Of a stretch of DNA of 64,000 nucleotides, positions 29,644 to 49,458 are shown piece by piece. The stretch lies in the NCBI RefSeq assembly GCF_058153355.1, contig NZ_CM177019.1, one strand, 5' to 3'. The position numbers and the translations under genes were made by a program. The notes under the pieces were generated by a model. The model saw nothing but the letters and a program-made list of their open reading frames with translations, did no database searches and had not been told where the DNA came from. How positions within the stretch are numbered: position 1 is the first letter of the stretch; each line of letters opens with the position of its first letter.

Positions 29644-29997
29644 ATGTCATTTCTGTTACCCATCCAATTGTTCAAAATTCTTGCCGATGAAACCCGTCTG
29701 GGCATCGTTTTACTGCTCAGCGAACTGGGAGAGTTATGCGTCTGCGATCTCTGCACTGCCCTCGATCAGTCGCAGCCCAAGATCTCCCGCCATCTGGCAT
29801 TACTGCGTGAAAGTGGGCTATTGCTGGACCGCAAGCAAGGAAAGTGGGTTCATTACCGTTTATCGCCGCATATTCCAACATGGGCGGCGAAAATTATTGA
29901 GCAGGCCTGGCGATGCGAACAGGTAAAGGTTCAGGTGATTGTCCGTAACCTCGCCAGACAAAATTGTTCCGCAGACAGTAAGAATATTTGTAGTTAA
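29644..29997 (+). CDS. arsR: Arsenical resistance operon repressor ArsR
   Basis: 117-aa ORF with the metal-binding ELCVCDLC motif in the HTH region. Confidence 0.95.
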   Translation: MSFLLPIQLFKILADETRLGIVLLLSELGELCVCDLCTALDQSQPKISRHLALLRESGLLLDRKQGKWVHYRLSPHIPTWAAKIIEQAWRCEQVKVQVIVRNLARQNCSADSKNICS

Positions 29998-30051
29998 AAA
30001 ATTTATCTAAACACATATGAATATTCGAATGTGTTTTATCCAGGAGGCATG

Positions 30052-31341
30052 ATGTTACTGGCGGGCGCTATCTTTGTCCTGACCATCGTATTGGTTATCT
30101 GGCAGCCGAAAGGTTTAGGTATCGGCTGGAGTGCTACGCTCGGTGCGGTACTGGCATTAATGACGGGCGTGGTCCATCCGGGCGATATTCCGGTGGTGTG
30201 GAATATCGTCTGGAACGCGACGGCTGCGTTTATAGCCGTCATTATCATCAGCTTGCTGCTGGATGAGTCCGGCTTTTTTGAATGGGCGGCGCTGCACGTC
30301 TCACGCTGGGGCAATGGGCGCGGTCGCTTGCTGTTTACCTGGATTGTCCTGCTCGGTGCTACCGTTGCGGCCCTGTTTGCCAATGATGGCGCGGCGCTTA
30401 TTTTGACGCCGATTGTCATCGCCATGCTGCTGGCTTTAGGGTTCAGCAAAGGCACTACGCTGGCGTTTGTTATGGCGGCCGGATTCATTGCCGATACCGC
30501 CAGTCTGCCGCTTATTGTCTCTAACCTGGTGAATATCGTTTCCGCAGATTTCTTTGGCCTCGGCTTTCGCGAATACGCATCGGTGATGGTGCCGGTGGAT
30601 ATCGCTGCAATACTGGCTACCCTGGTGATGTTGCATCTCTATTTCCGCAAAGATATTCCGCAGAACTACGATATGGCGCTGCTGAAATCTCCCGCAGAAG
30701 CGATTAAAGATCCTGCCACCTTCAAAACTGGCTGGGTTGTTTTACTGTTTCTGCTGGTGGGATTTTTCGTCCTGGAACCGCTCGGCATTCCGGTAAGCGC
30801 CATTGCGGCAGTGGGCGCGCTGATATTATTTGCCGTCGCTAAACGCGGTCATGCAATTAATACGGGTAAAGTGCTGCGCGGTGCGCCCTGGCAGATTGTC
30901 ATCTTCTCGCTCGGCATGTATCTGGTGGTTTATGGCCTGCGCAATGCCGGGCTAACGGAATATCTTTCTGGCGTACTCAACGTACTGGCGGAAAACGGCC
31001 TGTGGGCCGCGACGCTCGGCACCGGATTCCTCACCGCCTTCCTCTCTTCTATTATGAACAATATGCCGACGGTACTGGTTGGCGCGTTGTCCATTGATGG
31101 CAGCACGGCATCTGGTGTCATCAAAGAAGCGATGGTTTATGCCAACGTGATTGGCTGCGATTTGGGACCGAAAATTACCCCAATTGGTAGCCTGGCAACG
31201 CTGCTCTGGCTGCACGTACTTTCGCAGAAGAATATGACTATCAGCTGGGGATATTACTTCCGTACAGGGATTATCATGACCCTGCCGGTGCTGTTTGTGA
31301 CGCTCGCCGCGCTGGCGCTTCGTCTCTCTTTCACATCGTAA
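30052..31341 (+). CDS. arsB: Arsenite/antimonite efflux pump ArsB
   Basis: 429-aa polytopic membrane protein from [19 protein letters not shown]. Confidence 0.9.
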
Positions 31342-31353
31342 TGAGATACTGAT

Positions 31354-31779
31354 ATGAGCAACATTACTATTTATCACAACCCGGCCTGCGGCACGTCGCG
31401 TAATACGCTGGAGATGATTCGCAACAGCGGTACAGAACCGACCATTATCTATTATCTGGAAACACCGCCCACACGCGATGAGCTGGTCAAACTCATTGCC
31501 GATATGGGGATTTACGTACGCGCGCTGTTGCGTAAAAACGTCGAGCCGTATGAGGAACTGGGCCTTGCAGAAGATAAATTTACTGACGATCGGTTAATCG
31601 ACTTTATGCTTCAGCACCCGATTCTGATTAATCGCCCGATTGTGGTGACGCCGCTGGGAACTCGCCTGTGCCGCCCTTCAGAAGTGGTGCTGGAAATTCT
31701 GCCAGATGCGCAACAAGGCGCGTTCACCAAGGAAGATGGCGAGAAAGTGGTTGATGAAGCGGGTAAACGGTTGAAATAA
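31354..31779 (+). CDS. arsC: Arsenate reductase ArsC (glutaredoxin-coupled)
   Basis: 141-aa ORF MSNITIYHNPACGTSRNTLEMIR with catalytic Cys in the NPACGTSR motif. Confidence 0.95.
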   Translation: MSNITIYHNPACGTSRNTLEMIRNSGTEPTIIYYLETPPTRDELVKLIADMGIYVRALLRKNVEPYEELGLAEDKFTDDRLIDFMLQHPILINRPIVVTPLGTRLCRPSEVVLEILPDAQQGAFTKEDGEKVVDEAGKRLK

Positions 31780-31782
31780 CTA

Positions 31783-31807
31783 AAGGGGGATATGCCCCCT
31801 TATTTGT
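31783..31807. terminator. Hairpin terminator shared by arsC and the convergent ArsR-family gene
   Basis: aaagggggatatgccccctt followed by tatttg. Confidence 0.6.
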
Positions 31808-32120
31808 TCTCCGCGGCTCCTTCGCCATCTGTTTTGCTGTTTACGCAGCACTCCTCACGTAAGAATTCAATTATCGCTTCCAGCATTGCGTATTGCGAAA
31901 CACACATCAGCGTCCGACTCTCACGGTTTTGTTTGACCAACCCTACCGATACCAGTGCTGAAATATGGTGACTGAGTGTAGAGCCGGGTATCCCAAGCTG
32001 CTTTTGCAACTCACCGACCGGCAACCCTTGTTCCCCCGCTTTGACCAGATGCTTAAATATGAACAAACGGGTCGGATGACCTAACTCTTTCAGTGCCTTA
32101 GCGACCTCTTCCAATTGCAT
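31800..32120 (-). CDS. ArsR/SmtB-family metalloregulator (second copy; C-terminal Cys pair)
   Basis: 106-aa ORF with a wHTH region (LPVGELQKQLGIPGSTLSHHISALVSVGLV) and C-terminal …REECCVNS; divergent from a permease gene. Confidence 0.75.
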   Translation of the reverse strand: MQLEEVAKALKELGHPTRLFIFKHLVKAGEQGLPVGELQKQLGIPGSTLSHHISALVSVGLVKQNRESRTLMCVSQYAMLEAIIEFLREECCVNSKTDGEGAAENK

Positions 32121-32215
32121 GTGTCACCCCCTCTGTCTGGTTGATATTTCGATAATACCAGAAATATCTTGATCTGAACTTCATTTCGATTATTCTGGAA
32201 ATATAGTTTTATTCA

Positions 32216-33229
32216 ATGAGGTTACTTATGAGTAGTTGGCTTGCGATGCTGCAAGATGCCGTAGAGATGTTTGTGTTTCTCGCCGTCGAGCTTTCTTTGC
32301 TGTTTATGGTGATTAGTGCCGGTGTCAGCCTGATAAGACAAAAGGTGCCAGACCATAAAATCCAGCAGATGATGGGGGCCAGAAAAGGGAGAGGCTATCT
32401 CCTGGCTGCTCTGTTGGGAGCCGTTACCCCGTTCTGTAGTTGCTCGACAATACCCATGCTACGTGGATTGTTGTCAGCGAAAGCCGGGTTTGGTCCGACT
32501 CTCACTTTTTTATTTGTTTCACCGTTACTTAATCCCATTATCGTCGGGTTAATGTGGGTGACCTTTGGTTGGAAAGTTACCTTGTTGTACGCGATTATCG
32601 CCGCCGGCGTCTCCGTACTTGCCAGTATTATCTTGGATTCTCTGAGATTTGAACGTCATATCATTGCCAGTAAAAGCTCATCAGCAAATTGTTGCTCTCC
32701 AGCCAAAACTTCGCCGGGGACGACATATACGCCAATAAAAGTGAGTTGCTGTAGTCCAGCGGCTAAAGCCATTGAGAAACCTGTAGTAAACTGTTGCAGT
32801 ACCAAAGCTGTGGTAAGTATTAATCCCATAAAACTAGCCACCAAAGATGCGTTGCAACAGTTTAAAGATGTACTGCCATATCTTTTGTTAGGGGTATTAA
32901 TAGGCTCTTTTATTTATGGCTTTATTCCCTCAGAGTGGATTGCCGCTCATGCAGGGGCAGATAATCCCTTCGCCATCCCATTGAGCGCCGTTGTCGGAAT
33001 CCCGCTGTATATCCGGGCAGAGGCGGTTATCCCTCTGGCATCTGTTCTGATGACAAAAGGAATGGGTCTGGGAGCATTAATGGCATTAATCATCGGCAGT
33101 GCCGGCGCAAGTCTGACAGAAGTGATATTACTTAAATCAATGTTCAGAATACCGATGATAGTTGCATTCCTGACGGTTATCTTAGGTATGGCTATCTTGA
33201 TGGGCTATTTGACTCAAATGCTATTTTAA
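32216..33229 (+). CDS. arsP: ArsP-like organoarsenical efflux permease with a Cys-rich loop
   Basis: 337-aa membrane protein containing TPFCSCSTIP, which I recall as the ArsP signature; internal Cys-rich segment with three CC dipeptides (NCCSPAK…SCCSPAAK…NCCSTKA). Confidence 0.7.
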   Translation: MRLLMSSWLAMLQDAVEMFVFLAVELSLLFMVISAGVSLIRQKVPDHKIQQMMGARKGRGYLLAALLGAVTPFCSCSTIPMLRGLLSAKAGFGPTLTFLFVSPLLNPIIVGLMWVTFGWKVTLLYAIIAAGVSVLASIILDSLRFERHIIASKSSSANCCSPAKTSPGTTYTPIKVSCCSPAAKAIEKPVVNCCSTKAVVSINPIKLATKDALQQFKDVLPYLLLGVLIGSFIYGFIPSEWIAAHAGADNPFAIPLSAVVGIPLYIRAEAVIPLASVLMTKGMGLGALMALIIGSAGASLTEVILLKSMFRIPMIVAFLTVILGMAILMGYLTQMLF

Positions 33230-33339
33230 ATAGATGCCAGCAGTAAACTATAAGGGTAAGCGTCTTATCAGGACCGTCTGGCAAATTCCCGATGCTTTGG
33301 ACAAAGTATCCACCACTAAATTAATAGTGGGTGATAAAA

Positions 33340-33374
33340 ATGTCAGATATACAAAAAAATGCCTCTCCGGGAAG
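33340..33374 (+). pseudogene. IS66-family tnpA (orf1), 5' fragment split by the IS4 insertion
   Basis: ATG at 33340 reads MSDIQKNASPGK then IS4 begins; the frame resumes at 34801 (…SPGRPKGCLNYPPEFKQRL…). Confidence 0.7.
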
Positions 33375-34800
33375 TAATGCCGATCAGTTAAGGATCAGTT
33401 GACCGATCCAGTGGCTGTGTAAGAATCCGGAAACGCTCACTTGTTTCCGGATTTTTTTATGCACATTGGACAGGCTCTTGATCTGGTATCCCGTTACGAT
33501 TCTCTGCGTAACCCACTGACTTCTCTGGGGGATTACCTCGACCCCGAACTCATCTCTCGTTGCCTTGCCGAATCAGGTACTGTAACGCTACGCAAGCGCC
33601 GTCTTCCCCTCGAAATGATGGTCTGGTGTATTGTTGGCATGGCGCTTGAGCGTAAAGAACCTCTTCACCAGATTGTGAATCGCCTGGACATCATGCTGCC
33701 GGGCAATCGCCCCTTCGTTGCCCCCAGTGCCGTTATTCAGGCCCGCCAGCGCCTGGGAAGTGAGGCTGTCCGCCGCGTGTTCACGAAAACAGCGCAGCTC
33801 TGGCATAACGCCACGCCGCATCCGCACTGGTGCGGCCTGACCCTGCTGGCCATCGATGGTGTGTTCTGGCGCACACCGGATACACCAGAGAACGATGCAG
33901 CCTTCCCCCGCCAGACACATGCCGGGAACCCGGCGCTCTACCCGCAGGTCAAAATGGTCTGCCAGATGGAACTGACCAGCCATCTGCTGACGGCTGCAGC
34001 CTTCGGCACGATGAAGAACAGCGAAAATGAGCTTGCTGAGCAACTTATAGAACAAACCGGCGATAACACTCTGACGTTAATGGATAAAGGTTATTACTCA
34101 CTGGGACTGTTAAATGCCTGGAGCCTGGCGGGAGAACACCGCCACTGGATGATACCTCTCAGAAAGGGAGCGCAATATGAAGAGATCAGAAAACTGGGTA
34201 AAGGCGATCATCTGGTGAAGCTGAAAACCAGCCCGCAGGCACGAAAAAAGTGGCCGGGACTGGGAAATGAAGTGACAGCCCGCCTGCTGACCGTGACGCG
34301 CAAAGGAAAAGTCTGCCATCTGCTGACGTCGATGACGGACGCCATGCGCTTCCCCGGAGGAGAAATGGCGGATCTGTACAGTCATCGCTGGGAAATCGAA
34401 CTGGGATACAGGGAGATAAAACAGACGATGCAACTGAGCAGGCTGACGCTGAGAAGTAAAAAGCCGGAGCTTGTGGAGCAAGAGCTGTGGGGTGTCTTAC
34501 TGGCTTATAATCTGGTGAGATATCAGATGATTAAAATGGCGGAACATCTGAAAGGTTACTGGCCGAATCAACTGAGTTTCTCAGAATCATGCGGAATGGT
34601 GATGAGAATGCTGATGACATTGCAGGGCGCTTCACCGGGACGTATACCGGAGCTGATGCGCGATCTTGCAAGTATGGGACAACTTGTGAAATTACCGACA
34701 AGAAGGGAAAGGGCCTTCCCGAGAGTGGTAAAGGAGAGGCCCTGGAAATACCCCACAGCCCCGAAAAAGAGCCAGTCAGTTGCTTAACTGACTGGCATTA
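33375..34800 (+). mobile_element. IS4 (1426 bp) nested inside the IS66-family element
   Basis: Terminal sequences TAATGCCGATCAG… and …CTGACTGGCATTA; 12-bp target duplication CTCTCCGGGAAG at 33363-33374 and 34801-34812; length matches the 1426 bp I recall for IS4. Confidence 0.9.
33459..34787 (+). CDS. insG: IS4 transposase InsG
   Basis: 442-aa product from [16 protein letters not shown]…; DDE transposase. Confidence 0.9.
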
Positions 34801-35197
34801 CTCTCCGGGAAGGCCTAAAGGGTGCCTGAATTATCCTCCTGAATTCAAACAACGACTCATAGAAGCATCATTCCAGCCAGGTGTTTCAATTTCCAGACTG
34901 GCCCTGGACAATGGTATTAATGCCAATCTGTTGTTCAAATGGCGTCAGAAATGGCGGCAGGGGAAGATAAAATTGCCATCATCAGAATCAGGCAGAGAAT
35001 CTCAGTTAATTCCTGTCACTATTGATGCCCAACTCCCAACTGCTCCGGCTAATGAGCCACTGACCGCAAGACCGTCAGTAACACCGGAAATACACAGCAT
35101 CTCCTGTGAGATTACGTTCAGAAACGGCACCCTTCGGTTGAACGGGGCAGTGAATGAAAATCTGCTGTCCTTGCTTATACAGGAGCTGAGACGGTGA
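34801..35197 (+). pseudogene. IS66-family tnpA (orf1), 3' portion downstream of the IS4 insertion
   Basis: Same frame as the 5' fragment; joined product is about 143 aa; stop overlaps tnpB start. Confidence 0.7.
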
Positions 35198-35541
35198 TAT
35201 CTCTCCCTGCAGGTTCGCGTATCTGGCTGGTTGCAGGTATCACCGATATGCGAAATGGCTTTAACGGCCTGGCCTCAAAAGTTCAGAACGTCCTGAAGGA
35301 TGACCCGTTCTCCGGGCATCTGTTCATCTTCCGCGGACGCCGGGGTGACCAGATAAAAGTGTTGTGGGCTGACAGTGACGGACTGTGCCTCTTCACCAGA
35401 CGCCTGGAGCGGGGCCGCTTCGTCTGGCCGGTCACCCGTGACGGCAAGGTGCACCTTACTCCGGCCCAGTTATCCATGCTTCTTGAGGGCATCGACTGGA
35501 AACACCCGAAACGAACGGAACGCGCTGGCATCCGCATATAA
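35194..35541 (+). CDS. IS66-family TnpB (orf2)
   Basis: 115-aa ORF (MISLPAGSRIWLVAGITDMRNGFNGLA…), typical of IS66 orf2. Confidence 0.85.
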   Translation: MISLPAGSRIWLVAGITDMRNGFNGLASKVQNVLKDDPFSGHLFIFRGRRGDQIKVLWADSDGLCLFTRRLERGRFVWPVTRDGKVHLTPAQLSMLLEGIDWKHPKRTERAGIRI

Positions 35542-35560
35542 CCCGTTGTAAAGTGAGGAT

Positions 35561-37132
35561 ATGGACACCTCACTTGCTCATGAGAATGCCCGCCTGCGGG
35601 CACTGTTGCAGACGCAACAGGACACCATCCGCCAGATGGCGAAATACAACCGCCTGCTCTCACAGCGGGTGGCGGCTTATGCTTCCGAAATCAACCGGCT
35701 GAAGGCGCTGGTTGCAAAACTGCAGCGCATGCAGTTCGGTAAAAGCTCAGAAAAACTTCGTGCAAAAACCGAACGGCAGATACAGGAAGCACAGGAGCGA
35801 ATCAGCGCTCTTCAGGAAGAAATGGCGGAAACGCTGGGTGAGCAATATGACCCGGTACTGCCATCTCCCCTGCGCCAGTCTTCAGCCCGTAAACCGTTAC
35901 CTGCCTCACTTCCCCGTGAAACCCGGGTCATCCGTCCGGAAGAGGAATGCTGCCCGGCCTGTGGTGGCGAACTCAGTTCTCTGGGATGTGATGTGTCAGA
36001 GCAACTGGAGCTTATCAGCAGCGCCTTTAAGGTTATCGAAACACAACGTCCGAAACTGGCCTGTTGCCGGTGCGACCATATCGTGCAGGCTCCGGTGCCT
36101 TCAAAACCCATTGCACGCAGTTATGCCGGAGCGGGGCTTCTGGCCCATGTTGTCGCTGGAAAATATGCAGACCATCTGCCGTTATACCGCCAGTCAGAAA
36201 TATACCGTCGTCAGGGCGTGGAGCTGAGCCGTGCCACACTGGGGCGCTGGACAGGTGCTGTTGCTGAACTGCTGGAACCGCTGTATGACATCCTGCGCCA
36301 GTATGTGCTGATGCCCGGTAAAGTCCATGCCGATGATATCCCCGTTCCGGTCCAGGAGCCGGGCAGCGGTAAAACAAGGACTGCCCGGCTGTGGGTCTAC
36401 GTTCGTGATGACCGTAACGCCGGTTCGGAAATGCCTCCGGCGGTCTGGTTCGCGTACAGCCCGGACCGGAAAGGTATCCATCCACAGAATCATCTGGCCG
36501 GTTACAGCGGAGTGCTTCAGGCCGATGCTTACGGTGGTTACCGGGCGTTGTACGAATCCGGCAGAATAACGGAAGCCGCATGTATGGCTCATGCCCGGAG
36601 AAAAATCCACGATGTGCATGCAAGAGTGCCCACCGACATCACCACGGAAGCCCTGCAGCGTATCGGTGAACTGTATGCCATCGAGGCAGAGGTCCGGGGC
36701 TGTTCAGCAGAACAGCGTCTGGCGGCAAGAAAAGCCAGAGCCGCGCCACTGATGCAGTCACTGTATGACTGGATACAGCAACAGATGAAAACACTGTCGC
36801 GTCACTCGGACACGGCAAAAGCGTTCGCATACCTGCTGAAACAGTGGGATGCACTGAACGTGTACTGCAGTAATGGCTGGGTGGAAATCGACAACAACAT
36901 CGCAGAGAACGCCTTACGGGGAGTGGCCGTAGGCCGGAAAAACTGGCTCTTCGCGGGTTCTGACAGCGGTGGTGAACATGCTGCGGTGTTGTACTCGCTG
37001 ATCGGCACATGCCGTCTGAACAATGTGGAGCCAGAAAAGTGGCTGCGTTACGTCATTGAACATATCCAGGACTGGCCGGCAAACCGGGTACGCGATCTGT
37101 TGCCCTGGAAAGTTGATCTGAGCTCTCAGTAA
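35561..37132 (+). CDS. IS66-family transposase TnpC (orf3)
   Basis: 523-aa ORF with an N-terminal leucine-zipper-like region, a CxxC…CxxC zinc-finger-like segment (CPACGG…CCRCDH) and a DDE domain. Confidence 0.85.
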
Positions 37133-37724
37133 ATATCAATACGGTTCTGGCGAGCCGCTTACCTATAAGGAGCATTGTGAGTGCCTTATCCTTCTGAGTA
37201 GAAAATCATAGATAGGATAATCCTTAAAAATCACAAATAACTTAACTAATGCTTTGAGAATGATGACGGATCCGTCAGTAAGTCATCAATCGACAATCAC
37301 CACGCAATCATGCTTCTCTGACATTTTATCGGAGAAGCAATGCCTCTTTGTCTCAGTGCTATCCCCCCTTTTAAAGGGCAGATTTCAGTCGCCAATACAA
37401 CACATTTTTAAATACACTTTAACCTGGTTCATTATTACACATCTAAAACATCACAAAAATATCACTTCACACGCTATCGGAGAACATCATAACTTTTTAA
37501 AATCAGCGCTTTTTGATAGTTGTTAATGTTTTCCTTTACGATACTATCACTGCCCTTTTTTTATACACAAATATTACCGGGTGGAAATGAAAGGGAAGTT
37601 AAAGGTAATTATATCAGGAAGATATGACGCATTGTGTTTATTTCCGCGTAGAAGAAAATCCATTCCTGCTCTAATTCTCCGATTTGCAAAAATTTAGCGA
37701 AATAGATGAACAATAAGGAATGTT

Positions 37725-38948
37725 ATGTCAATTGACTTTACCCCAGGTATGATAAATACATATCACGGCGATATTTATAACCGCACAACAGATACCGACA
37801 ATATTAAAACACCAAACACACCGATGTGGCCTTGTGATAATCAGGAAGAACAGCAACCCATTAATTTTTCATTGTCTGAAGAAGGATATAACGCTGAACA
37901 ATTTGATTTAGCGCAACAACAACTCCAACAAATTAATGCGTGCCACACGAACACCACATATACAAATGCAGACTACTCAAAAGTTGTGGCTCAACTTGTA
38001 AAACTTATTAATAACATTGAAACGATAAGTTCGACACCACTTACGCAACAGACACAATCAATACTTAATCAGATTAATAACATTAGATACGAAAAGAATA
38101 AAAACTCTGAATCTGAAATCATTGTTGTCTTTAATCCTAAGCCCAATAAGCCAATCATAACTAAAATTCTCGTAGAAGAGGGAATACCAGTAAGATTCAG
38201 TGTCCAAACCGTTTCTTCCGAAAATAAAAATTTTTCTGGGCAACGAACTGATTTACCAACTGATATAAAAGATATTCAACGCTTGTACCAAAAAATGACA
38301 AGGTTGTATATTGAGCACAGTAAAAATGAAAACAGGATGAAAGTCTTTGCTGGAACCAACTTTATTGATTTCAATATGACAGGACAGGACCTGTCCGGGT
38401 TCGTTCTAACCTTGTCAAGGTTTTATTTCGAAGATCTACTTAATGTAAACTTCACTGACGCAAATTTATTTGATACTATTTTTTCACATAAGGAAAACCC
38501 TATCACAAAATTACATAAAGATGAACAATATGTTGACAAACAAATCAATGGGTTATTTTCAACATTATTAACCATTAATGACAACTCTTTAAGAGCAAAA
38601 GCGGAAATTGCTTCGATAATAATAGAATTATTAGAAACCAAGGTAAATAATCTTTCATACAACGACATAATAAAATATCAGAAAGAATTCCAAAAAGAAT
38701 GTTACAAGCAAGTTAAATATTTTACAACACCCTCTCGATACAATAGAATTAAAAAATGGGCACAAATGTCTGAATATCAATTCGAAATATTTCAACACGA
38801 TACGTTTCATCCTAAAAAAATGTCATACGCACCTTATTTAAAGAGATCGCTACCTGATGAAAAAACTATAAATTATGGGGTGGAAATAGAAATACCAACT
38901 GGCAAAAGAATTCGCTTATCAAATCATTACCAGAATATAATCCCATAA
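37725..38948 (+). CDS. yhiS: Uncharacterised protein YhiS (intact here) with pentapeptide-like repeats
   Basis: 407-aa AT-rich ORF immediately upstream of slp; segment [40 protein letters not shown] resembles pentapeptide repeats. Confidence 0.7.
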
Positions 38949-40506: not shown

Positions 40507-41535
40507 TTATGCAGTAACGCCTTCCGGTATCAGCGAAGCAATTTGCTTACGCCATTGCGCTTGCTCCTGTTCGCCTTCTGTACGTTGACCATAAAGTTGC
40601 GCTATCTGCGTACCATCATGGGCAAACAATTCCAGACTGGTCACATAACCGTCACTAGCAGGTTTACGGGTTACCCAGGTTTCAGCAATGCTCTCTTCTA
40701 ATAGATGAAGAGTAAACGTCGGGTTAAAAATATTCAGCCAACCTTTCATTGGCACCACTTTTTCTACCACGCCAGTGAAAATCTGTACGCAGCCACGGTT
40801 GCCAACAAACACCATGATTTCATTGCCATCCTGCTGTGCAGATTCAAGAATTTGCGCCAACGCACTGTTGGATACTTTGCAGGCCAAATCATCTGCCACC
40901 AAATTGAACGCCTGTTGGCGCGTCAGGTTGTGGCGCTTGAGCAACGTAAAAAACTGATGAACGTCGGTCATCGCCCGCCACTCTTGCTCGACCACACTGG
41001 CATCGGCTCGCGTTTGAACAACTGGCGCATCAACGGCTTTTAACTCAAGCGGCGTATTCTCATCGGTGATAAACCGTGCCAGAAGCTCACTCCATGCCGC
41101 CATATCGGTATTGTCGGTGGCATAAACTTTTAGTAATGCATCGCCCTGATGATCAAAGAACTGAATACTCTGGCGTTCGCCACGAGTCGTATTTTCTTTG
41201 ATGTGGAAAACACTGGCCCATTGATTGAGAAACAGACGCAAATCCAGCGCGCGCGGATTGAGGATCAATCCGGCATGTCCGTTTAAATGCTGGTTTGTGA
41301 ACGCACCAACTTGCTCATGGACTGCATATTCATTACGACAAATACATTTGGTCTCGCCAACACTTTCGAGCGCCGCCAGAATGTCACGGATATCGCCGCA
41401 CATCCGCCACGCATCGTGCGTGACGCGCGCAAATGCCAGTTCTGCTTCGCTAATATTCATTAAACCTGCGATGTCACGCGCGTACTTTCCGGGATTTTGT
41501 TCTTTTAACTCAAGCCAGCGTGTGTAGTGGTTCAT
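40507..41535 (-). CDS. chuS: Haem oxygenase / haem degradation protein ChuS (HemS family)
   Basis: 342-aa ORF immediately downstream of the TonB-dependent receptor gene; translation matches my recollection of ChuS/ShuS. Confidence 0.85.
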   Translation of the reverse strand: MNHYTRWLELKEQNPGKYARDIAGLMNISEAELAFARVTHDAWRMCGDIRDILAALESVGETKCICRNEYAVHEQVGAFTNQHLNGHAGLILNPRALDLRLFLNQWASVFHIKENTTRGERQSIQFFDHQGDALLKVYATDNTDMAAWSELLARFITDENTPLELKAVDAPVVQTRADASVVEQEWRAMTDVHQFFTLLKRHNLTRQQAFNLVADDLACKVSNSALAQILESAQQDGNEIMVFVGNRGCVQIFTGVVEKVVPMKGWLNIFNPTFTLHLLEESIAETWVTRKPASDGYVTSLELFAHDGTQIAQLYGQRTEGEQEQAQWRKQIASLIPEGVTA

Positions 41536-41583
41536 TGTCTCTCTTCCTTCCAGATAAATGCCCCGAAATATCGGGGCAGATGA

Positions 41584-43566
41584 TTACCATTGATAACTAA
41601 CGAAAATTTTTCCGTTACGACCATCCTGTGGGATGCCTTGCGGCGACCAGTACTCTTTGTCGAAGGCGTTGCCCAATACCAGAGTAGTGGTCATACCTTT
41701 GAGCGCCTGCTGCCCTTGATAACTGACGTAGAAATCATTCACACCATAGCCAGGTTGTTTGCTGTAACTGCTGCTGATATGTGTTGAGCGATCGGCAAAC
41801 GTACCGACCCAACCAACAGAGAAGCCACTGTGAGCGATCGGAATATTCAGGGTGCTGGTAACGGTATCCGGGTTAATACTGGAAATATATTCCCCGGTAT
41901 CGGTGTCTTTGCCGCGGGTACGGTTATAGGCCACATCAAGGCTAAACAGATCAGTGGTATATTTCGTCATCACATCCCAGCCCCAGATTTTGGCGTTCGG
42001 GACGTTATACGACATAGTTGTCGCCGCCGCGAAATCGACAGTCGTGGAGATGTAATCCTTCGCTTTGGTATCAAAGTAGCTGGCTTTAAATTCCAGGGCA
42101 TCATTGGACAACATCAGGTCATCAAAACGCAGCCCAAAACCGTACTCCTGAGTTTCGTTAGTTTCCGGACGTAAGTTCGGGTTTGGCACCCAATAGTTGG
42201 TATAGAAGCGACCAATCGAGAAGTGCTTAGAATCGTTATACATTTCGCCCATCGTCGGGGCGCGGAATGCCTGGGCATATGAGCCAAATAACATCAGCCA
42301 GTTGGTCGGGTTGATAGTCATCCCCGCACGAGATGACCATTTGTCAGCATCAACATCTTTGTAGCCGTCGCTGCTACCGTGATAACTGTCATAGCGGGTT
42401 CCGCCAAGCAGGGTAATCGGCAGATCGCGTAAGGTGATCTCATCCTGTAGCCAGCCAGAGCTAAAATCGATTTTTGCTTGCGGAAAGCCCGTCGTCGCGC
42501 CACCCGGATGTTGTTCCTGACGATAATACTCACCGCCATATGTCAGTAAGTGAGAAGCGAAACTGTCGGCAAATAGAGTGGAACGGTTCTCCAGCCTGGC
42601 TCCTTTTGTTATCTGTTCACGATACTCGCCGGAACTCCCCGTGTTTTGCGCATTAATACGGACTTCCGACCAGTAAATTTTTGCATCTGCATTTAACCAG
42701 TCGTTGCCCTGCGGGGCGAGTTTATAAGAAAGCTGCGCATCGCGTTGAATTGTTGAACGATCAACCATCGGGTTGCTGTTTTCAGAAGCCTCAACGGTCT
42801 GCGGATTTTTTGGTTCACGCGCGTCGTTGTTGTAGTAACGCACTAAACCGCTCAGAGACTGGGCTGAATCAATTTGCCAGGTCCCTTTCGCCAGCATGTT
42901 ATTAATGGACTCGTCATTCGGCGCGGTTTCACCATTGCTCTGGCGTAAATCACCCCGATCGCGACTGGACCAGGCCACAATACCATCCAGATTTTCAGTT
43001 CGCCCAAACGCGCTCGCGCCTAATCCCAGGCTATGGTCCCCCGTGCCACCAGTACCAAAGACACGAAAACCACTACTTTGTCCTTCCTGCAATAAATCTT
43101 TTGCATCGACCGTATCGTAGGAGATCACCCCACCCAGCGCGCCACTGCCATACAGTAATGCTGAAGGTCCGCGAACAATCTCAACACGCTTGATCAGCGC
43201 CGGATCGAGAAAAGTACCATTCAGATGTCCGGTATCCGTTCCCTGGCGAACACCATCGACAAGAACCAGCACGCCGCGATGATCATAGCCACGCATATTT
43301 ACATCCTGACCGTTGGTTCGTCCGGTACCATCAAGAGTAATTCCAGGAACATGACGCAGCAGATCGGTGGCTGAAGTAGCCGTTTGATTTTCAGGAGCGG
43401 AAGTGTCGATGACGCTGACCATCATAGGCGCTTCGAAGGAACTACGGGCATTCCCCGTTGCCGTAACGGTCATGGTTTCAGTAGCAAAAGCAAACGTTGG
43501 CAAGGTGGCAGAAACAGCCAAAGCCAACAAACTCAAACGCAACGAGGTAAATTGCGGACGTGACAT
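41584..43566 (-). CDS. chuA: TonB-dependent outer-membrane haem receptor ChuA
   Basis: 660-aa ORF with signal peptide, plug domain and C-terminal aromatic residue (…FVSYQW); Fur box upstream. Confidence 0.9.
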   Translation of the reverse strand: MSRPQFTSLRLSLLALAVSATLPTFAFATETMTVTATGNARSSFEAPMMVSVIDTSAPENQTATSATDLLRHVPGITLDGTGRTNGQDVNMRGYDHRGVLVLVDGVRQGTDTGHLNGTFLDPALIKRVEIVRGPSALLYGSGALGGVISYDTVDAKDLLQEGQSSGFRVFGTGGTGDHSLGLGASAFGRTENLDGIVAWSSRDRGDLRQSNGETAPNDESINNMLAKGTWQIDSAQSLSGLVRYYNNDAREPKNPQTVEASENSNPMVDRSTIQRDAQLSYKLAPQGNDWLNADAKIYWSEVRINAQNTGSSGEYREQITKGARLENRSTLFADSFASHLLTYGGEYYRQEQHPGGATTGFPQAKIDFSSGWLQDEITLRDLPITLLGGTRYDSYHGSSDGYKDVDADKWSSRAGMTINPTNWLMLFGSYAQAFRAPTMGEMYNDSKHFSIGRFYTNYWVPNPNLRPETNETQEYGFGLRFDDLMLSNDALEFKASYFDTKAKDYISTTVDFAAATTMSYNVPNAKIWGWDVMTKYTTDLFSLDVAYNRTRGKDTDTGEYISSINPDTVTSTLNIPIAHSGFSVGWVGTFADRSTHISSSYSKQPGYGVNDFYVSYQGQQALKGMTTTLVLGNAFDKEYWSPQGIPQDGRNGKIFVSYQW

Positions 43567-43855
43567 AGCGATTCTCCATGAGGAAAATAAAAAATGCTGG
43601 CTGCCTGGGTTAATACCGGGGTGGCTTGCGAGAAATAAATTTATTTAAAATTCAGAGCGATAATATTCGCCGGGTGAGTTTACAGGCGTTTATATCCCAT
43701 GAAATTGCCTGGTATCTCGGCAAATACGCAAAAGCACGCCCTCTTTGTCAGGCAAAACGATATGCCCCATCAGGAGTGAAGAGCGCTGTGCGTTATCCCT
43801 TGCAAATGCTATGGTTTTGTTATCCATATGGTCGTGTTTTGTTAAGCGCGAACGT

Positions 43856-43874
43856 GATAATGAGAATTATTATC
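43856..43874. promoter_or_regulatory. Fur box in the chuA-chuT divergent promoter region
   Basis: gataatgagaattattatc closely matches the 19-bp Fur consensus GATAATGATAATCATTATC. Confidence 0.75.
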
Positions 43875-44248
43875 GATCAATTTTTTATGATCAAGCTTTT
43901 TTTAACCGCCATTAACACAATAAACAGGGGGTTATGAAACCTATCCTGCGCCCTGGAAACCACTTTGTTTTTATGGTTATTCCCCCATGACCTCATCACT
44001 AAACTTTGTCGTTAACAGTGATAATTTTCTCTTCTCTTTGCTCTGCAAGCCGCGATATCTCTGGGTTCTCAGCTTTTTCCCGCGCTGAAATTTAGTCGGT
44101 AACAAGAACGTTAGCTGACGAAGCATCTTGATAAAAATCAAAAATAAATACGCTTGTAACGCCTTGCGTATTGAATCGACGGTTGTATTTCATATATAAC
44201 TCAAATGATAATCATGATCATTCTCAATTTGATAAGAGTTCTCATATT

Positions 44249-45163
44249 ATGCCAAGGATCATCACCAGGCCGTTTCTTTTTTCCCCACTGACGTTATGTA
44301 TTTCAGCCGTGGCCTCTGCCGCGAAGACCGCGGTAAAACGAAAAAAATTGTTTACGGCAGTACTGGCTCTTAGCTGGGCTTTTAGCGTAACGGCTGCCGA
44401 ACGTATCGTGGTCGCAGGAGGATCGCTGACGGAGCTAATCTACGCGATGGGCGCTGGCGAACGCGTGGTTGGTGTCGATGAAACGACATCTTATCCACCA
44501 GAAACCGCCAAACTGCCGCATATTGGCTACTGGAAACAACTCAGCAGCGAAGGCATTTTGTCACTTCGCCCGGATAGCGTAATTACCTGGCAGGATGCCG
44601 GGCCACAAATTGTGCTCGACCAACTACGAGCGCAGAAAGTCAACGTCGTCACCCTGCCGCGTGTGCCTGCCACCCTTGAGCAGATGTACGCCAACATTCG
44701 CCAACTGGCAAAAACGCTACAGGTTCCTGAACAAGGCGAGGCGCTGGTGACACAGATCAACCAACGCCTGGAGCGAGTACAGCAAAACGTGGCGGGCAAA
44801 AAAGCCCCGGTTAAAGCCATGTTTATTCTCTCCGCAGGCGGAAGTGCGCCACAGGTTGCCGGTAAAGGCAGCGTCGCGGACGCCATTCTTTCGCTTGCCG
44901 GAGCAGAAAACGTCGCAACCCACCAGCAGTACAAAAGCTACAGTGCAGAATCACTGATTGCGGCTAATCCAGAAGTGATTGTCGTAACCTCACAAATGGT
45001 CGATGGCGATATTAACCGGCTACGTTCTATTGCCGGAATTACCCACACTGCCGCATGGAAAAACCAGCGCATTATCACCGTTGATCAAAACCTGATTCTG
45101 GGAATGGGTCCGCGTATTGCTGATGTCGTTGAGTCTTTACACCAGCAGCTTTGGCCGCAATAA
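44249..45163 (+). CDS. chuT: Periplasmic haem-binding protein ChuT (start codon uncertain)
   Basis: ABC substrate-binding protein with a signal-peptide-like N-terminus; the ORF-track start at 44171 may over-extend. Confidence 0.75.
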   Translation: MPRIITRPFLFSPLTLCISAVASAAKTAVKRKKLFTAVLALSWAFSVTAAERIVVAGGSLTELIYAMGAGERVVGVDETTSYPPETAKLPHIGYWKQLSSEGILSLRPDSVITWQDAGPQIVLDQLRAQKVNVVTLPRVPATLEQMYANIRQLAKTLQVPEQGEALVTQINQRLERVQQNVAGKKAPVKAMFILSAGGSAPQVAGKGSVADAILSLAGAENVATHQQYKSYSAESLIAANPEVIVVTSQMVDGDINRLRSIAGITHTAAWKNQRIITVDQNLILGMGPRIADVVESLHQQLWPQ

Positions 45164-45182
45164 ATGGATTTAAATCAGACGA

Positions 45183-46520
45183 ATGAACACAAATAACCCC
45201 CTGGATCTCACGCCACATTTTGCTTTAGACGGTGATCAGCCATTTAAAGACAGGCGCGCCATGATGCCGTTTCGTGGGGCCATTCCAGTTGCCAAAGAGC
45301 AACTGGCACAGACCTGGCAAGAGATGCTCAATCAAACGGTATCACCACGTAAGCGACTGGTTTATCTACACATTCCTTTTTGTGCAACACACTGCACGTT
45401 TTGTGGTTTTTATCAGAACCGTTTTAATGAAGATGCGTGTGCTCATTATACCGACGCCCTGATTCGTGAAATAGAAATGGAAGCGGACAGCGTATTGCAT
45501 CAGTCTGCCCCCATCCACGCGGTCTATTTCGGTGGCGGCACGCCTTCCGCGCTTTCGGCACACGATTTGGCCAGAATTATCACCACATTACGAGAAAAGC
45601 TGCCACTGGCCCCTGATTGTGAAATCACTATCGAAGGCCGGGTACTGAATTTTGACGCTGAGCGAATCGATGCTTGCCTTGATGCAGGAGCAAACCGCTT
45701 CTCAATTGGTATTCAGTCGTTTAACAGCAAAATCCGTAAGAAAATGGCCCGCACCTCGGATGGCCCAACCGCCATTGCGTTTATGGAAAGCCTGGTCAAA
45801 CGCGACCGTGCTGCGGTGGTCTGTGACCTTCTGTTTGGCCTGCCGGGTCAGGATGCGCAAACCTGGGGAGAAGATCTGACTATTGCCCGCGATATCGGTC
45901 TCGACGGCGTCGATCTCTATGCGCTCAATGTCCTGCCCAATACACCGCTGGGCAAAGCCGTGGAAAATGGGCGTACTACCGTGCCCTCTCCGGCAGAACG
46001 ACGCGATCTTTATCTGCAAGGGTGTGACTTCATGGACGAAGCTGGTTGGCGCTGTATCAGTAACAGCCACTGGGGCCGTACCACACGCGAACGCAATCTC
46101 TATAACCTGCTGATTAAACAAGGTGCCGATTGTCTGGCCTTTGGTTCCGGAGCCGGCGGTTCGATTAATGGTTACTCCTGGATGAACGAACGCAGTCTTC
46201 AGACCTGGCATGAATCCGTCGCGGCAGGCAAAAAACCGCTGATGATGATCATGCGTAACGCCGAACGTAATGCGCAATGGCGTCATACCTTGCAGTCAGG
46301 TGTTGAAACAGCGCGTGTACCGCTGGATGAACTTACGCCACATGCCGAAAAACTCGCGCCGTTACTGGCTCAATGGCACCAAAAAGGCTTAAGCCGCGAT
46401 GCTTCAACTTGCCTGCGGCTGACTAATGAAGGTCGTTTCTGGGCAAGCAATATTTTGCAGTCTCTTAATGAACTAATTCAGGTACTTAATGCGCCAGCGA
46501 TTGTGCGTGAAAAACCATAA
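45183..46520 (+). CDS. chuW: Radical SAM haem-degrading enzyme ChuW (HemN-like)
   Basis: 445-aa ORF with the radical SAM Cys motif CATHCTFC. Confidence 0.85.
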   Translation: MNTNNPLDLTPHFALDGDQPFKDRRAMMPFRGAIPVAKEQLAQTWQEMLNQTVSPRKRLVYLHIPFCATHCTFCGFYQNRFNEDACAHYTDALIREIEMEADSVLHQSAPIHAVYFGGGTPSALSAHDLARIITTLREKLPLAPDCEITIEGRVLNFDAERIDACLDAGANRFSIGIQSFNSKIRKKMARTSDGPTAIAFMESLVKRDRAAVVCDLLFGLPGQDAQTWGEDLTIARDIGLDGVDLYALNVLPNTPLGKAVENGRTTVPSPAERRDLYLQGCDFMDEAGWRCISNSHWGRTTRERNLYNLLIKQGADCLAFGSGAGGSINGYSWMNERSLQTWHESVAAGKKPLMMIMRNAERNAQWRHTLQSGVETARVPLDELTPHAEKLAPLLAQWHQKGLSRDASTCLRLTNEGRFWASNILQSLNELIQVLNAPAIVREKP

Positions 46521-46532
46521 CAGGAGTGATTT

Positions 46533-47027
46533 ATGAGCCATGTCTCGTTACAAGAATTTTTGAAAACGGAGCCGGACGGTACGCTGGAGGTGGTAGCCGA
46601 ACAATACAACACCACACTGCTGGAAGTAGTGAGAAATCTACCCTCCTCTACCGTAGTGTCAGGCGATAAATTCGATACTGTCTGGGATACCGTCTGCGAA
46701 TGGGGCAACGTCACCACGTTAGTACATACTGCCGATGTAATCCTCGAATTTAGCGGCGAACTGCCTTCGGGTTTCCATCGCCACGGCTATTTCAACCTAC
46801 GCGGAAAGCACGGCATGTCCGGGCATATCAAAGCAGAAAACTGCACACATATTGCCTTGATCGAACGTAAATTTATGGGCATGGACACCGCATCCATTCT
46901 CTTTTTCAACAAAGAAGGCAGCTCAATGCTGAAAATCTTCCTCGGCAGGGATGACCATCGTCAGCTCCTGAGCGAACAAGTCAGCGCCTTCCATGCTCTG
47001 GCAGCATCGTTAAAGGAACACGCCTGA
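46533..47027 (+). CDS. chuX: Haem utilisation protein ChuX
   Basis: 164-aa ORF in chu operon context. Confidence 0.8.
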   Translation: MSHVSLQEFLKTEPDGTLEVVAEQYNTTLLEVVRNLPSSTVVSGDKFDTVWDTVCEWGNVTTLVHTADVILEFSGELPSGFHRHGYFNLRGKHGMSGHIKAENCTHIALIERKFMGMDTASILFFNKEGSSMLKIFLGRDDHRQLLSEQVSAFHALAASLKEHA

Positions 47028-47650
47028 TGACGCCGTGGCTACTCTTTGGCGCAGGCGGAAAAGGTGTGGGTGCCAGAACGCTTGAACTGGCGCTGGCGGA
47101 ACAACGTCCGGTCGTTGCTGTCATTCGTCATGCTGATGCTGCCACGAAACTGGCGCAACAAGGCGTACAGGTTTTTACAGGCGACGCCTGTGATGCCAGC
47201 GTAGTCGCGGCTGCTTGCCGCGCAGCTGGCCCGGATGCGCTTATCATCTCAACAATGGGCGGAGCTCAGGATTATCTGGCACACAGAACAGTGATTGATG
47301 AGGCCGAAAAGGCCGGCATCAGTCGCATGATTCTGGTGACCTCTTTGGGATGTGGCGATAGCTGGCCGTTTTTATCGGAGCGGGCAAAGGCTGCGTTTGG
47401 TCAGGCGGTACGGGAAAAAACGCTGGCGGAAAGCTGGTTGCAAACCAGCCAGCTTGATTACGCCATTCTCCGCCCTGGCGGTCTGCTTGATGGTGCGGCA
47501 ACGGGCAAAGCACAACGGATACAAAATCAGGAGTGTCATGGTTTTGTTAACCGTGTCGATGTCGCCGCACATATCCATGAACTGGCAAATGCGCCAGCAC
47601 TTAACCAGCAGGTCTACAGTCTGATTGAACCGGACCTGAAACCGGCGTGA
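47027..47650 (+). CDS. chuY: NAD(P)-binding reductase ChuY
   Basis: 207-aa ORF with an N-terminal Rossmann-like Gly-rich motif (LFGAGGKG); start overlaps chuX stop. Confidence 0.8.
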   Translation: MTPWLLFGAGGKGVGARTLELALAEQRPVVAVIRHADAATKLAQQGVQVFTGDACDASVVAAACRAAGPDALIISTMGGAQDYLAHRTVIDEAEKAGISRMILVTSLGCGDSWPFLSERAKAAFGQAVREKTLAESWLQTSQLDYAILRPGGLLDGAATGKAQRIQNQECHGFVNRVDVAAHIHELANAPALNQQVYSLIEPDLKPA

Positions 47651-47698
47651 TCCCCCGGCGCGGAATCTCCGCGCCGTAATGTCGTAACGGAGTTTTGC

Positions 47699-48691
47699 GT
47701 GCTCAAGGATTCACTCTCTTCCGCCAGGGTCTTTATGGGGCTATCACTATTATTGCTAGCTCTGGTGCTGTTCGGTGCCAGTCAGGGAGCGTTAAAGATC
47801 AGTTTTGATGCCCTTTTTGATGAGGAATACCGCGATATCTGGCTCAATATTCGTCTACCACGGGTTTTGCTGGCGGTGCTGGTAGGTGCAGCGTTGGCAA
47901 CCGCCGGGGTAATTATGCAGGGGCTTTTTCGCAACCCAATGGCTGACCCTGGATTACTCGGCGTCAGTAGCGGTTCTGCATTAATGGTTGGCGTTGCTAT
48001 TGTGCTGCCCTTTTCCTTCCCAGTGGTGCTGGTGCTCTATGAGCAAATGGTGTTTGCCATTGCCGGAAGTTTAGTGGTCTGCACCATCATTTTTCTCATC
48101 ACGCAGCGCCATCGCGATGGAAGCATGATGCAATTATTACTCGCCGGTATCGCCATCAATGCCCTGTGCGGCGCAGCGATCGGCATCCTGAGCTATATCG
48201 GCGATGAGCAGCAGCTACGACAACTCACATTGTGGATGATGGGCAATCTTGGACAGGCGCAATGGCCGACGTTATTGGTTGCCAGTTCATTCATCCTACC
48301 GGCCATTATTGCAACAACTTGTCTCGCCGGAACGCTGAATTTACTGCAGCTCGGTGATGAAGAAGCCCACTACCTCGGCGTGAACGTTAAGCGTAAACGC
48401 CAGCAATTACTGTTAGTGAGCTCACTGCTCGTTGGTGCCGCCGTATCGGTAAGCGGCATTATCGGCTTTATTGGCCTGGTGATCCCGCATCTGATTCGTA
48501 TGACTACCGGGGCAAATCACCGCTGGCTAATCCCTTGCTCCGCCCTCGCCGGAGCCTGTTTATTGCTGATGGCAGACACGCTTGCCCGCACACTGGTACA
48601 GCCAGCAGAAATGCCCGTGGGATTATTAACCAGCCTGCTTGGTGGCCCTTATTTTATGTGGTTGATTCTGCGCAACCGGAGGATCACATGA
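47699..48691 (+). CDS. chuU: Haem ABC transporter permease ChuU
   Basis: 330-aa FecCD-family polytopic membrane protein. Confidence 0.85.
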
Positions 48692-49458
48692 TCAGCGCCC
48701 AGAATCTGGTTTATAGCCTTCAGGGGCGGCGTCTGACTGATAATGTCTCGCTGACTTTTCCCGGTGGGGAAATTGTTGCCATTCTCGGCCCTAATGGTGC
48801 GGGAAAATCTACGCTGCTTCGCCAGTTAACCGGCTATCTTCAACCTGATAGCGGCGAATGTCGGTTGTTTAATAAGCCATTAAATGAATGGTCGATTACT
48901 GAACTGGCGAAACACCGGGCCGTGATGCGTCAAAATAGCCACATGGCGTTTCCATTCAGCGTACAAGAAGTTATCCAGATGGGGCGGCATCCGCATCGTA
49001 CTGGTAATCAGGATAATGAAACAGCACAAATAATGGCGTTATGTGACTGTCAGGCGTTAGCAAACCGCGACTATCGGCAATTATCCGGTGGTGAACAACA
49101 GCGCGTGCAATTAGCGCGCCTGCTGGTGCAACTCTGGGAACCAACTCCCTCACCGAAATGGTTATTTCTTGATGAACCAACTTCGGCGCTGGATATTCAC
49201 CATCAGCAGCACTTGTTTCGTTTATTACGCCAGCTAGTTCACGAACGGCAGTTCAATGTTTGCTGCGTATTGCACGATCTAAATCTTGCCGCGCGTTATG
49301 CAGACCGTGTTGTATTAATGCAAAAAGGAAAGGTTATCGCAAATGGTAAACCGCAGGACGTATTGACACAGCAGGCGCTGACAATGCTCTACGGCGCGGA
49401 TATTACCGTACTTAAAGATCCTGCCAACCATTCACCACTGATCGTCCTCGATCATTAA
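48688..49458 (+). CDS. chuV: Haem ABC transporter ATPase ChuV
   Basis: 256-aa product from MISAQNLVY with Walker [10 protein letters not shown] and signature LSGGEQQR; 4-bp overlap with chuU. Confidence 0.85.

Follow-up and report, generated by a model that had tools for sequence, protein, structure and literature searches.

A divergent ArsR–ArsP gene pair beside arsRBC in Escherichia, a candidate counterpart of the SpArsR–ArsP system of Shewanella putrefaciens

The regulator, its operators and the permease

The 64,000-nucleotide stretch of DNA analysed here, referred to throughout as the window, belongs to contig NZ_CM177019.1 of NCBI RefSeq assembly GCF_058153355.1. Along its ars locus the genes gor, dinQ, arsR, arsB and arsC are followed by two divergent genes, the subject of this report, which encode a small ArsR/SmtB-type regulator and a membrane permease of the ArsP_1 family (Table 1). 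A first-pass annotation made from the letters alone had pointed to two divergent open reading frames (ORFs) at this place, a 106-residue regulator containing EECCVNS and a permease of 337 residues, and both were found where it had put them. The two genes are real and intact. Both are under purifying selection: the ratio of nonsynonymous to synonymous substitution rates (dN/dS) is 0.01-0.05 in the regulator, 0.04-0.16 in the core of the permease and 0.29-0.50 in its loop. The permease most likely starts at the ATG at 32228, which would give 333 residues instead of 337, because a GAGG Shine-Dalgarno sequence is conserved, the homologues begin with MSSW or MNSW, RefSeq annotates a protein of 333 residues, and the plasmid, Aeromonas and Citrobacter loci lack the ATG further upstream. 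Public annotation labels the product only as a "permease".

The regulator matches the Pfam profiles HTH_20 and HTH_5 and the NCBIfam model HTH_metalloreg (61.6 bits; cut-off 55), as its initial placement in the ArsR/SmtB family had implied. Its best relative of solved structure is AfArsR (6J05; E 3.4e-10), on whose arsenic-binding residues C95 and C96 the pair C91-C92 aligns, and next in rank come YgaV and BigR (E about 2.5e-7). Three later papers describe SpArsR as the methylarsenite (MAs(III))-selective ArsR that controls arsP in S. putrefaciens 200 (Chen, Nadar and Rosen 2017, via PMC13236881, PMC11868830 and PMC12124457). We took its coding sequence and the native arsP promoter from the supplement of the biosensor paper (PMC12124457); over residues 15-92 the regulator and SpArsR share 54% identity (E 1e-27), a value that is approximate near codons 27-35, where a few bases are missing from the sequence used. 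Because SpArsR is extended by 10 residues at its N-terminus, C73, C91 and C92 of the window regulator correspond to its C83, C101 and C102.

No cysteine occurs in the regulator before residue 73. The R773-type (type 1) site ELCVCDL (C32, C34, C37), present in the product of the upstream arsR gene (29644-29997), is absent, and the equivalent stretch, LPVGELQ, is cysteine-free. The tail, VNSKTDGEGAAENK, has no cysteine either; an equivalent of AfArsR C102 is lacking, and with it the AfArsR-type (type 2) triad. The pattern present is that of SpArsR, a vicinal pair equivalent to C101/C102 with no counterpart of AfArsR C102. This C-terminal pair had been singled out in the first-pass annotation, and it stands, but it is not the whole set: C73, situated 18 residues before the pair at a position where AfArsR has tyrosine, completes a C-x17-CC triad that occurs in all nine regulators aligned and is invariant in the 61 permease-linked regulators (61/61) of our species survey, which comprised 80 species loci, 61 of them with paired regulators. 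A description of the protein as a two-cysteine-only regulator was revised once C73 had proved invariant among the paired regulators. C73 (SpArsR C83) may have an unrecognised role in sensing, and we found no published account that explains either this residue or the Cys-rich loop of the permease.

The C-terminus of the E. coli regulator exists in two forms, one of 106 residues ending ...NSKTDGEGAAENK (here and in E. whittamii) and one of 98 residues ending ...NSKIA (most strains); the 3' ends were compared over 31800-31832 of the window and 8993-9020 of locus record L002. In most genomes the match to the window begins at 31832, and identity reaches 99% or more in just 15. This pattern suggests that alleles were replaced at the arsC junction. 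arsC and the regulator gene converge on a G+C-rich hairpin, which overlaps the regulator stop codon, is terminator-like on either strand and looks like a two-way terminator.

The control region between the two genes holds two related 22-bp sites, at 32146-32167 and 32183-32204, which are 37 bp apart; the first lies within an inverted repeat whose arms, GATATTTC...GAAATATC, are perfect over 8 bp. Site 1 is placed between the -35 and -10 hexamers of the promoter-like site on the permease side, and site 2 overlaps the -10 hexamer of the promoter-like site on the regulator side. Promoter-like matches were not more numerous than expected from shuffling (3 found, 2.5 expected), so that only their placement is informative. 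Two conserved operators that overlap promoter-like sites nevertheless agree with the divergent regulator-transporter logic proposed at the outset. Site 1 hardly varies among the E. coli, plasmid and Citrobacter loci, differs by one base in Aeromonas and is also found in Shewanella ANA-3; site 2 is conserved in the control-region alignment. The SpArsR-controlled arsP promoter of S. putrefaciens, which in its native form drives the SpArsR-controlled biosensor (PMC12124457), agrees with site 1 at 23 of 26 positions, including all 21 of the core TTCGATAATACCAGAAATATC, and its second site agrees with site 2 at 18 of 25. From this correspondence the regulator would be expected to recognise an arsP operator. 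The best support for the view that the E. coli genes probably act as the Shewanella module does comes from the operator match, taken together with the homology of the regulators.

The permease aligns from end to end with the Pfam family ArsP_1 (PF03773; E 4.2e-53, residues 13-334, model positions 3-293 of 294), in keeping with its early naming as an ArsP-like protein. The sequence TPFCSCSTIP was read correctly in the first pass, and a motif of the TPFCSCS type is kept in 80 of 80 surveyed relatives, so that the conservation then asked for does exist. With a C(S/T)C pair in its membrane domain the protein carries the "tPF" signature of ArsP cluster 2, as the "tPF-C(S/T)C" proteins are classed by Yang et al. 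2015 (PMC4435449). As a mark of ArsP, however, the motif is not diagnostic, since its CSC core is common to the Cu/Zn exporter family SO_0444 and to SaoE. Scores against the NCBIfam models of these two families fall below the cut-offs (110.6 bits for SO_0444, NF033936, cut-off 300; 84.6 bits for SaoE, NF040736, cut-off 325). All family members scanned give 56-122 bits with the two models, including a Campylobacter protein from an arsP-arsR-acr3 locus similar in layout to that of the characterised ArsP of C. jejuni (CjArsP), for which it serves here as proxy, and other ArsP_1 members score 61-103 bits with NF033936; since they all score alike, the matches show superfamily membership only. No NCBIfam model claims the clade of the permease, no SAO import genes were found in the neighbourhood of the pair, and a search of solved structures with the permease sequence gave no match at E <= 1. 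Identity amounts to 51% with the Shewanella ANA-3 homologue and to 32% over the full length with the Campylobacter protein (E 3e-46). Castillo and Saier 2010 (PMC2963123) described some ArsP homologues with a hydrophilic insert of ~100 residues between transmembrane segments 4 and 5, and reported that the ArsPs of E. coli, Aeromonas and Yersinia form one cluster and are found together with ArsA. The arsenic context of the permease consists of the adjoining arsRBC genes, the divergent SpArsR homologue and the operators held in common with the arsP promoter, through which its expression would presumably be regulated.

The central loop of the permease, 61 residues long, contains three CC pairs. 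At least three such pairs turned up in 503 of 1,000,000 shuffles of the loop and in 16 of 200,000 shuffles of the whole permease, and on account of this rarity the arrangement is not chance. The thiol-rich loop noticed in the first pass is accordingly a real feature, and its Cys-rich composition is kept in relatives. Loop length and sequence vary greatly even among Escherichia alleles, yet the richness in cysteine stays. Permeases aligned from E. coli, E. fergusonii, plasmids, Aeromonas and Citrobacter range from 298 to 377 residues with two to five CC pairs; among the 80 species loci every loop has cysteine, one or more CC pairs occur in 48 and two or more in 30; and the nearest 50%-identity cluster representatives have Cys-rich loops too, with up to seven CC pairs. 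The length polymorphism would fit a history in which short units containing cysteine were gained and lost.

An AlphaFold2 model of the permease (64 sequences) reached a predicted local distance difference test score (pLDDT) of 87.6 and a predicted template modelling score (pTM) of 0.83; the central loop, with a pLDDT of about 50, is predicted to be disordered. Each modelled half comprises a long helix, two pairs of half-helices and another long helix, the first half-helix pair having its break at TPFC (half 1) or PLYIRAE (half 2), and by fold matches the model resembles the DASS/INDY carriers and ArsB. An arrangement of six spanning helices and two hairpins puts 21 lysine and arginine residues inside and 3 outside; for eight spanning helices the counts are 9 and 14. 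We infer the former topology. The side of the loop, which the first pass had left to a topology prediction, is by these counts probably the cytoplasmic one, and a periplasmic Cys loop was rejected on the residue counts and the fold class. C70 and C72, at the break between the half-helices, would lie at the tip of re-entrant hairpin 1, entering from the cytoplasm, and make up a putative substrate site.

Table 1. Coordinates in the window of the gene pair, its control region and the adjoining features
Feature	Position	Strand	Remarks
arsR-arsB-arsC operon	29644..31779	+	canonical, directly upstream of the pair; own R773-type ArsR
G+C-rich hairpin	31783..31801	both	between convergent arsC and regulator genes
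Regulator gene	31800..32120	-	ArsR/SmtB-family repressor, SpArsR homologue, 106 aa; ORF, profiles
Regulator cysteine codons	C73 31902-31904; C91-C92 31845-31850	-	
Divergent control region	32121..32227		107 bp, regulator gene to permease gene
Promoter-like hexamers, permease side	32141-32170	+	
Operator site 1	32143..32168		GATATTTCGATAATACCAGAAATATC, 26 bp, 8-bp perfect inverted ends
Operator site 2	32183..32204		ATTTCGATTATTCTGGAAATAT, 82% identical to site 1, 37 bp downstream
Promoter-like hexamers, regulator side	32216-32189	-	
Longest permease ORF	32216..33229	+	337 aa
Permease gene	32228..33229	+	ArsP_1 family, 333 aa; PF03773, start-codon comparison
TPFCSCSTIP motif	32426..32455	+	residues 67-76 of the 333-aa permease
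Cys-rich central loop	32660..32842	+	residues 145-205, 61 residues
CC-pair codons of the loop	32690-32695; 32747-32752; 32792-32797	+	
Target duplication	33248-33255 and 37163-37170		CTATAAGG, 8 bp, flanks the IS66-family element
IS66-family element	33256-37162		TnpB 35194-35541, TnpC 35561-37132
Nested IS4-family element	~33361-34814		near IS66 left end; 32-nt inverted repeats 33361-33392, 34783-34814

Origin, distribution and genomic neighbours

The pair is situated between arsC and yhiS-slp in 2219 of 5426 complete E. coli genomes (about 41%), mostly at 95-99% identity; E. fergusonii and E. whittamii have it too. Its absence from K-12, as stated in the first-pass annotation, is correct as to the two genes but not as to every trace of them, for a relic of 62 bp, 81% identical to the 3' part of the regulator gene, remains in MG1655 (locus record L016, 3815-3876). 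In EC42405 (locus record L015, 3501-3618) the last ~39 bp of the regulator gene, that is its last 12 codons and stop, are joined to approximately the last 70 bp of the permease gene. The two relics look like the outcome of at least two different deletions. Judged by these genome comparisons the pair is ancestral to the Escherichia ars locus and has been deleted more than once, because it occupies the same site across E. coli, is present in E. fergusonii and E. whittamii, and has left scars in pair-less genomes; it was thus not appended to arsRBC, as the first description had it.

Relative to a genome 99.3% identical to it, the window has one extra block, 33256-37162, which starts with GTAAGCG, ends with CGCTTAC and is a simple insertion of an IS66-family insertion sequence (IS) into the spacer between the permease gene and yhiS. 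The pair had been thought to end exactly where this element begins, at 33266, and possibly to have arrived with, or been truncated by, mobile DNA. The element in fact begins 26 bp past the permease stop codon, so that nothing was truncated, and genomes without the IS have the pair in this position as well. We rejected the idea that the pair was inserted or came on mobile DNA in view of these IS-free carriers, the IS boundaries and the deletion scars. Beyond the element, yhiS (37725-38948) is an intact ORF of 407 residues with no NCBIfam family match, whereas in K-12 it is split by IS5. The chu heme-uptake locus, with a chuS-like gene, a TonB-dependent heme receptor, chuT, chuW and others, lies at 40507-49458 between dctR and yhiD and is missing from the otherwise closest genome.

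Plasmid relatives, ~75% identical in the permease, were found in at least 648 records, 456 of them predicted to be conjugative, from E. coli, Salmonella and Klebsiella, many from poultry or pigs. On many resistance plasmids the pair is an isolated fragment bounded by IS1, IS26 and Tn3-family remnants and adjoining integrons, qnrS1 or oqxAB.

The regulator-permease unit occurs next to arsenic genes in a variety of arrangements: with arsRBC in Escherichia; with arsRDABC in a Citrobacter prophage; with arsR-arsH-sigma-arsD-arsA on pESI/R64-type plasmids; with arsRCDAB (two ArsRs, then arsC-arsD-arsA-arsB) in Ignatzschineria, the second of these ArsRs being AfArsR-like with a CC...C pattern; in the arr/acr3 region of a Burkholderiaceae metagenome-assembled genome; near arsR-acr3-arsC in a verrucomicrobium; and in the middle of the arr/ars island of Shewanella ANA-3. 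The permease stands in the order Acr3-ArsD-ArsA-permease in Endozoicomonas and ArsD-ArsA-permease-Acr3 in Craterilacuibacter. The ANA-3 island also has a second ArsP_1 paralogue (locus record L048, 4922-5920), which shares 28% identity with the permease of the window; its operon further contains arsR, two ArsC-like genes, a GAPDH-like gene and a gene for an ArsJ-like protein of the major facilitator superfamily. Among the 80 species loci, ars genes were scored within 8 kb in 8, a lower bound inasmuch as the limited set of Ars references misses arsM, arsI, arsJ, low-molecular-weight ArsC and non-arsenic metal genes. A 16-kb interval around a random gene is, by estimate, well under 1% of a genome, so that 10% ars linkage is a clear enrichment. 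The remaining loci are for the most part free-standing pairs of marine Gammaproteobacteria, and for most members of the family the neighbourhood gives no functional clue. A SigZ-type extracytoplasmic function (ECF) sigma gene lies directly 3' of the regulator gene in 14 Vibrio loci (for instance locus records L010, 6658-7203; L033, 6933-7505; and L071, 6894-7484), a sigma-70 family gene separates arsH from arsD in the plasmid ars2 cluster, and one Vibrio has a glutathione S-transferase (GST)-like gene near the pair.

Possible function of the pair

We consider it probable, at roughly 60%, that the pair is a self-contained sensor/exporter for trivalent organoarsenicals and the Escherichia counterpart of SpArsR-ArsP of S. 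putrefaciens, with inducer, substrate, direction of transport and role of the loop as we infer them here. When no inducer is present, a dimer of the ArsR-family protein would occupy the two operators of 22-26 bp in the 107-bp region and repress both genes. Methylarsenite, and probably also aromatic As(III) compounds such as reduced roxarsone (Rox(III)) and phenylarsine oxide, would bind to C91-C92 at the end of helix alpha5, and the inducer-bound repressor would leave the DNA. The permease would act as a two-repeat carrier with two re-entrant hairpins and a fold related to those of DASS/INDY and ArsB, in which the arsenical would be bound via C70-x-C72 at the tip of hairpin 1 and moved out of the cell. 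The three CC pairs of the disordered cytoplasmic loop may capture the thiol-bound arsenical and pass it to the CSC motif by ligand exchange, a hand-over that can be likened to that of the ArsD vicinal pairs feeding ArsA.

This reading draws on the cysteines and the homology of the regulator, the operator, the ArsP_1 match, the ANA-3 and Campylobacter homologues, the ars contexts, the lysine and arginine counts and the purifying selection. The suggestion of an arsenic, and specifically an organoarsenical, function made in the first pass has been strengthened, in so far as comparison of sequences can do so, by the match of regulator and operator to the SpArsR system and by the recurrence of the module in independently built ars clusters.

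Several points weigh on the other side. The invariant C73 and the CC pair could together form a three-coordinate As(III) site, and a two-cysteine model of MAs(III) binding leaves C73 unexplained. Within 8 kb of about 90% of the homologous pairs, most of them from marine Gammaproteobacteria, no ars gene was scored. The permease is only 32% identical to the Campylobacter-type ArsP, which has no CC loop, its CSC motif is common to Cu/Zn exporters, and a search of the literature found no experiment on it or on its clade. It may also handle As(III), given that pESI-carrying Salmonella without arsB and acr3 resist both inorganic As(III) and phenylarsine oxide (PMC9219668). Finally, the hairpin topology and the side of the loop are predicted from the model, the fold matches and the charge counts.

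The main rival is an exporter of inorganic As(III)/Sb(III), serving as a back-up to ArsB and, beside arsD-arsA, as the membrane partner of the ArsA ATPase, with the regulator sensing As(III) through C73 and C91-C92; we regard it as unlikely. The invariance of the cysteine triad in all 61 paired regulators would suit such a sensor, but SpArsR has three equivalent cysteines and is described as unresponsive to As(III): in PMC13236881 and PMC11868830, its C101/C102 are a two-coordinate MAs(III) site, As(III) elicits no response, and this is ascribed to a missing third liganding cysteine. On pESI/R64-type plasmids the permease is the sole transporter beside arsD-arsA, and isolates with such clusters resist NaAsO2 without arsB or acr3; that phenotype, however, was never tied to a gene, and the authors left the adjacent permease out of consideration (PMC9219668). 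Castillo and Saier proposed a coupling of ArsA to ArsP from co-occurrence (PMC2963123). ArsD, ArsA and the permease follow one another in Craterilacuibacter and Endozoicomonas, but both loci carry Acr3 too. Next to the E. coli pair stands a complete arsRBC with its own As(III) sensor, all three products of which pass their NCBIfam cut-offs (ArsR 227.9, ArsB 729.5 and ArsC 304.6 bits), which would make a second As(III) system redundant, and the characterised CjArsP does not export As(III) (PMC6205960).

An extension of these ideas, tentative and rather doubtful, is that the loop is a built-in arsenic chaperone or docking arm that hands trivalent arsenicals to the CSC motif at the hairpin tip, and that with arsDA the permease would be a third kind of membrane partner for ArsA. 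If true, it would explain the As(III) resistance seen with pESI-type plasmids without ArsB and Acr3.

The two other explanations have little support. An SO_0444-type exporter of soft metals (Cu, Zn, Cd, Hg or Ag), whose ars neighbourhood in Escherichia would be incidental, is improbable. SO_0444 Cu/Zn efflux is the top NCBIfam match of the permease, but its 110.6 bits stand against a cut-off of 300 and SO_0444/SaoE matches do not discriminate across the family. The CSC motif is common to the SO_0444 family, and SO_0444 mutants are sensitive to Zn and Cu, but the regulator predicted for SO_0444 is of the MerR/ZntR type (PMC3219624) and that of the pair is an ArsR-type SpArsR homologue. CC pairs and Cys-rich loops would fit Hg, Cd or Cu(I) as well, and most homologous pairs are not beside ars genes; against this, ars linkage is repeated in many independent arrangements, and no copper, zinc or mercury genes were noticed in the flanks examined, which were not screened systematically with a reference set for such genes. 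Least probable of all, and very unlikely, is a thiol, persulfide or redox-stress module in which the regulator senses cysteine oxidation as BigR and YgaV do and the permease moves a sulfur compound: the structural kinship to YgaV and BigR, the Vibrio and plasmid sigma genes and the single GST-like gene would accord with it, but the sensing cysteines of BigR are at other positions, the regulator having none before residue 73, the CC pair falls on the residues that bind the arsenical in AfArsR and SpArsR, and the operator is common to a MAs(III)-controlled promoter.

Comparison with known systems

The kind of system to which we assign the pair is already known, and the plasmid copy has already been named arsP-arsR; in the literature we found no description of the chromosomal E. 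coli copy, of its loss from K-12, of its equivalence to SpArsR-ArsP or of the loop cysteines. The value of the present analysis lies in a corrected annotation and in an easily testable, widespread gene. Should the pair indeed export methylarsenite or aromatic arsenicals, a considerable part of the E. coli in the gut would possess a defence that K-12 has lost. This would bear on the handling of arsenic in the gut, on the co-selection of plasmids by arsenical feed additives, and on the choice of K-12 as a "clean" host strain in arsenic biosensing.

SO_0444 and SaoE share the superfamily and the CSC motif with the permease but differ in regulator type and genomic context, and the permease scores far below both of their cut-offs. 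AfArsR of Acidithiobacillus ferrooxidans (6J05), which has a type 2 As(III) site, aligns exactly at the CC pair at the end of alpha5; its third ligand, C102, is missing from the window regulator, and it has tyrosine at the position of C73. ArsP of C. jejuni (TC 2.A.119) is a MAs(III)/Rox(III) efflux permease according to what PMC6205960 relates of it (Shen 2014, Chen 2015); it has in common with the window permease the Pfam family, a TPFCSCS-type motif, an ArsR partner and an arsenic context. The Campylobacter type differs in its short, lysine-rich central loop without CC pairs, in a sequence identity of 32%, and in a co-transcribed arsP-arsR-(arsC)-acr3 operon where a divergent pair is found here. 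The pESI/R64-type plasmid copy, labelled arsP-arsR in PMC6449608, is nearer, with ~75% identity in the permease, ~91% in the regulator, and the same divergent layout and operators. Its permease is longer (345-377 residues) and has more CC pairs, and its regulator gene heads an arsH-sigma-arsD-arsA operon, unlike the chromosomal copy, which stands beside arsRBC without those partners.

SpArsR-ArsP (Sput200_1227 and Sput200_1226) has the same three regulator cysteines at 54% identity and an identical operator core. By their locus tags its regulator and permease genes are adjacent, and in Shewanella ANA-3 they are divergent, as in the window. For the permease the comparison was made through the ANA-3 relative, which is 51% identical, has a CC-rich central loop with four CC pairs, and lies beside a matching regulator. 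The Escherichia module differs in being attached to arsRBC and in having a regulator without the 10-residue N-terminal extension.

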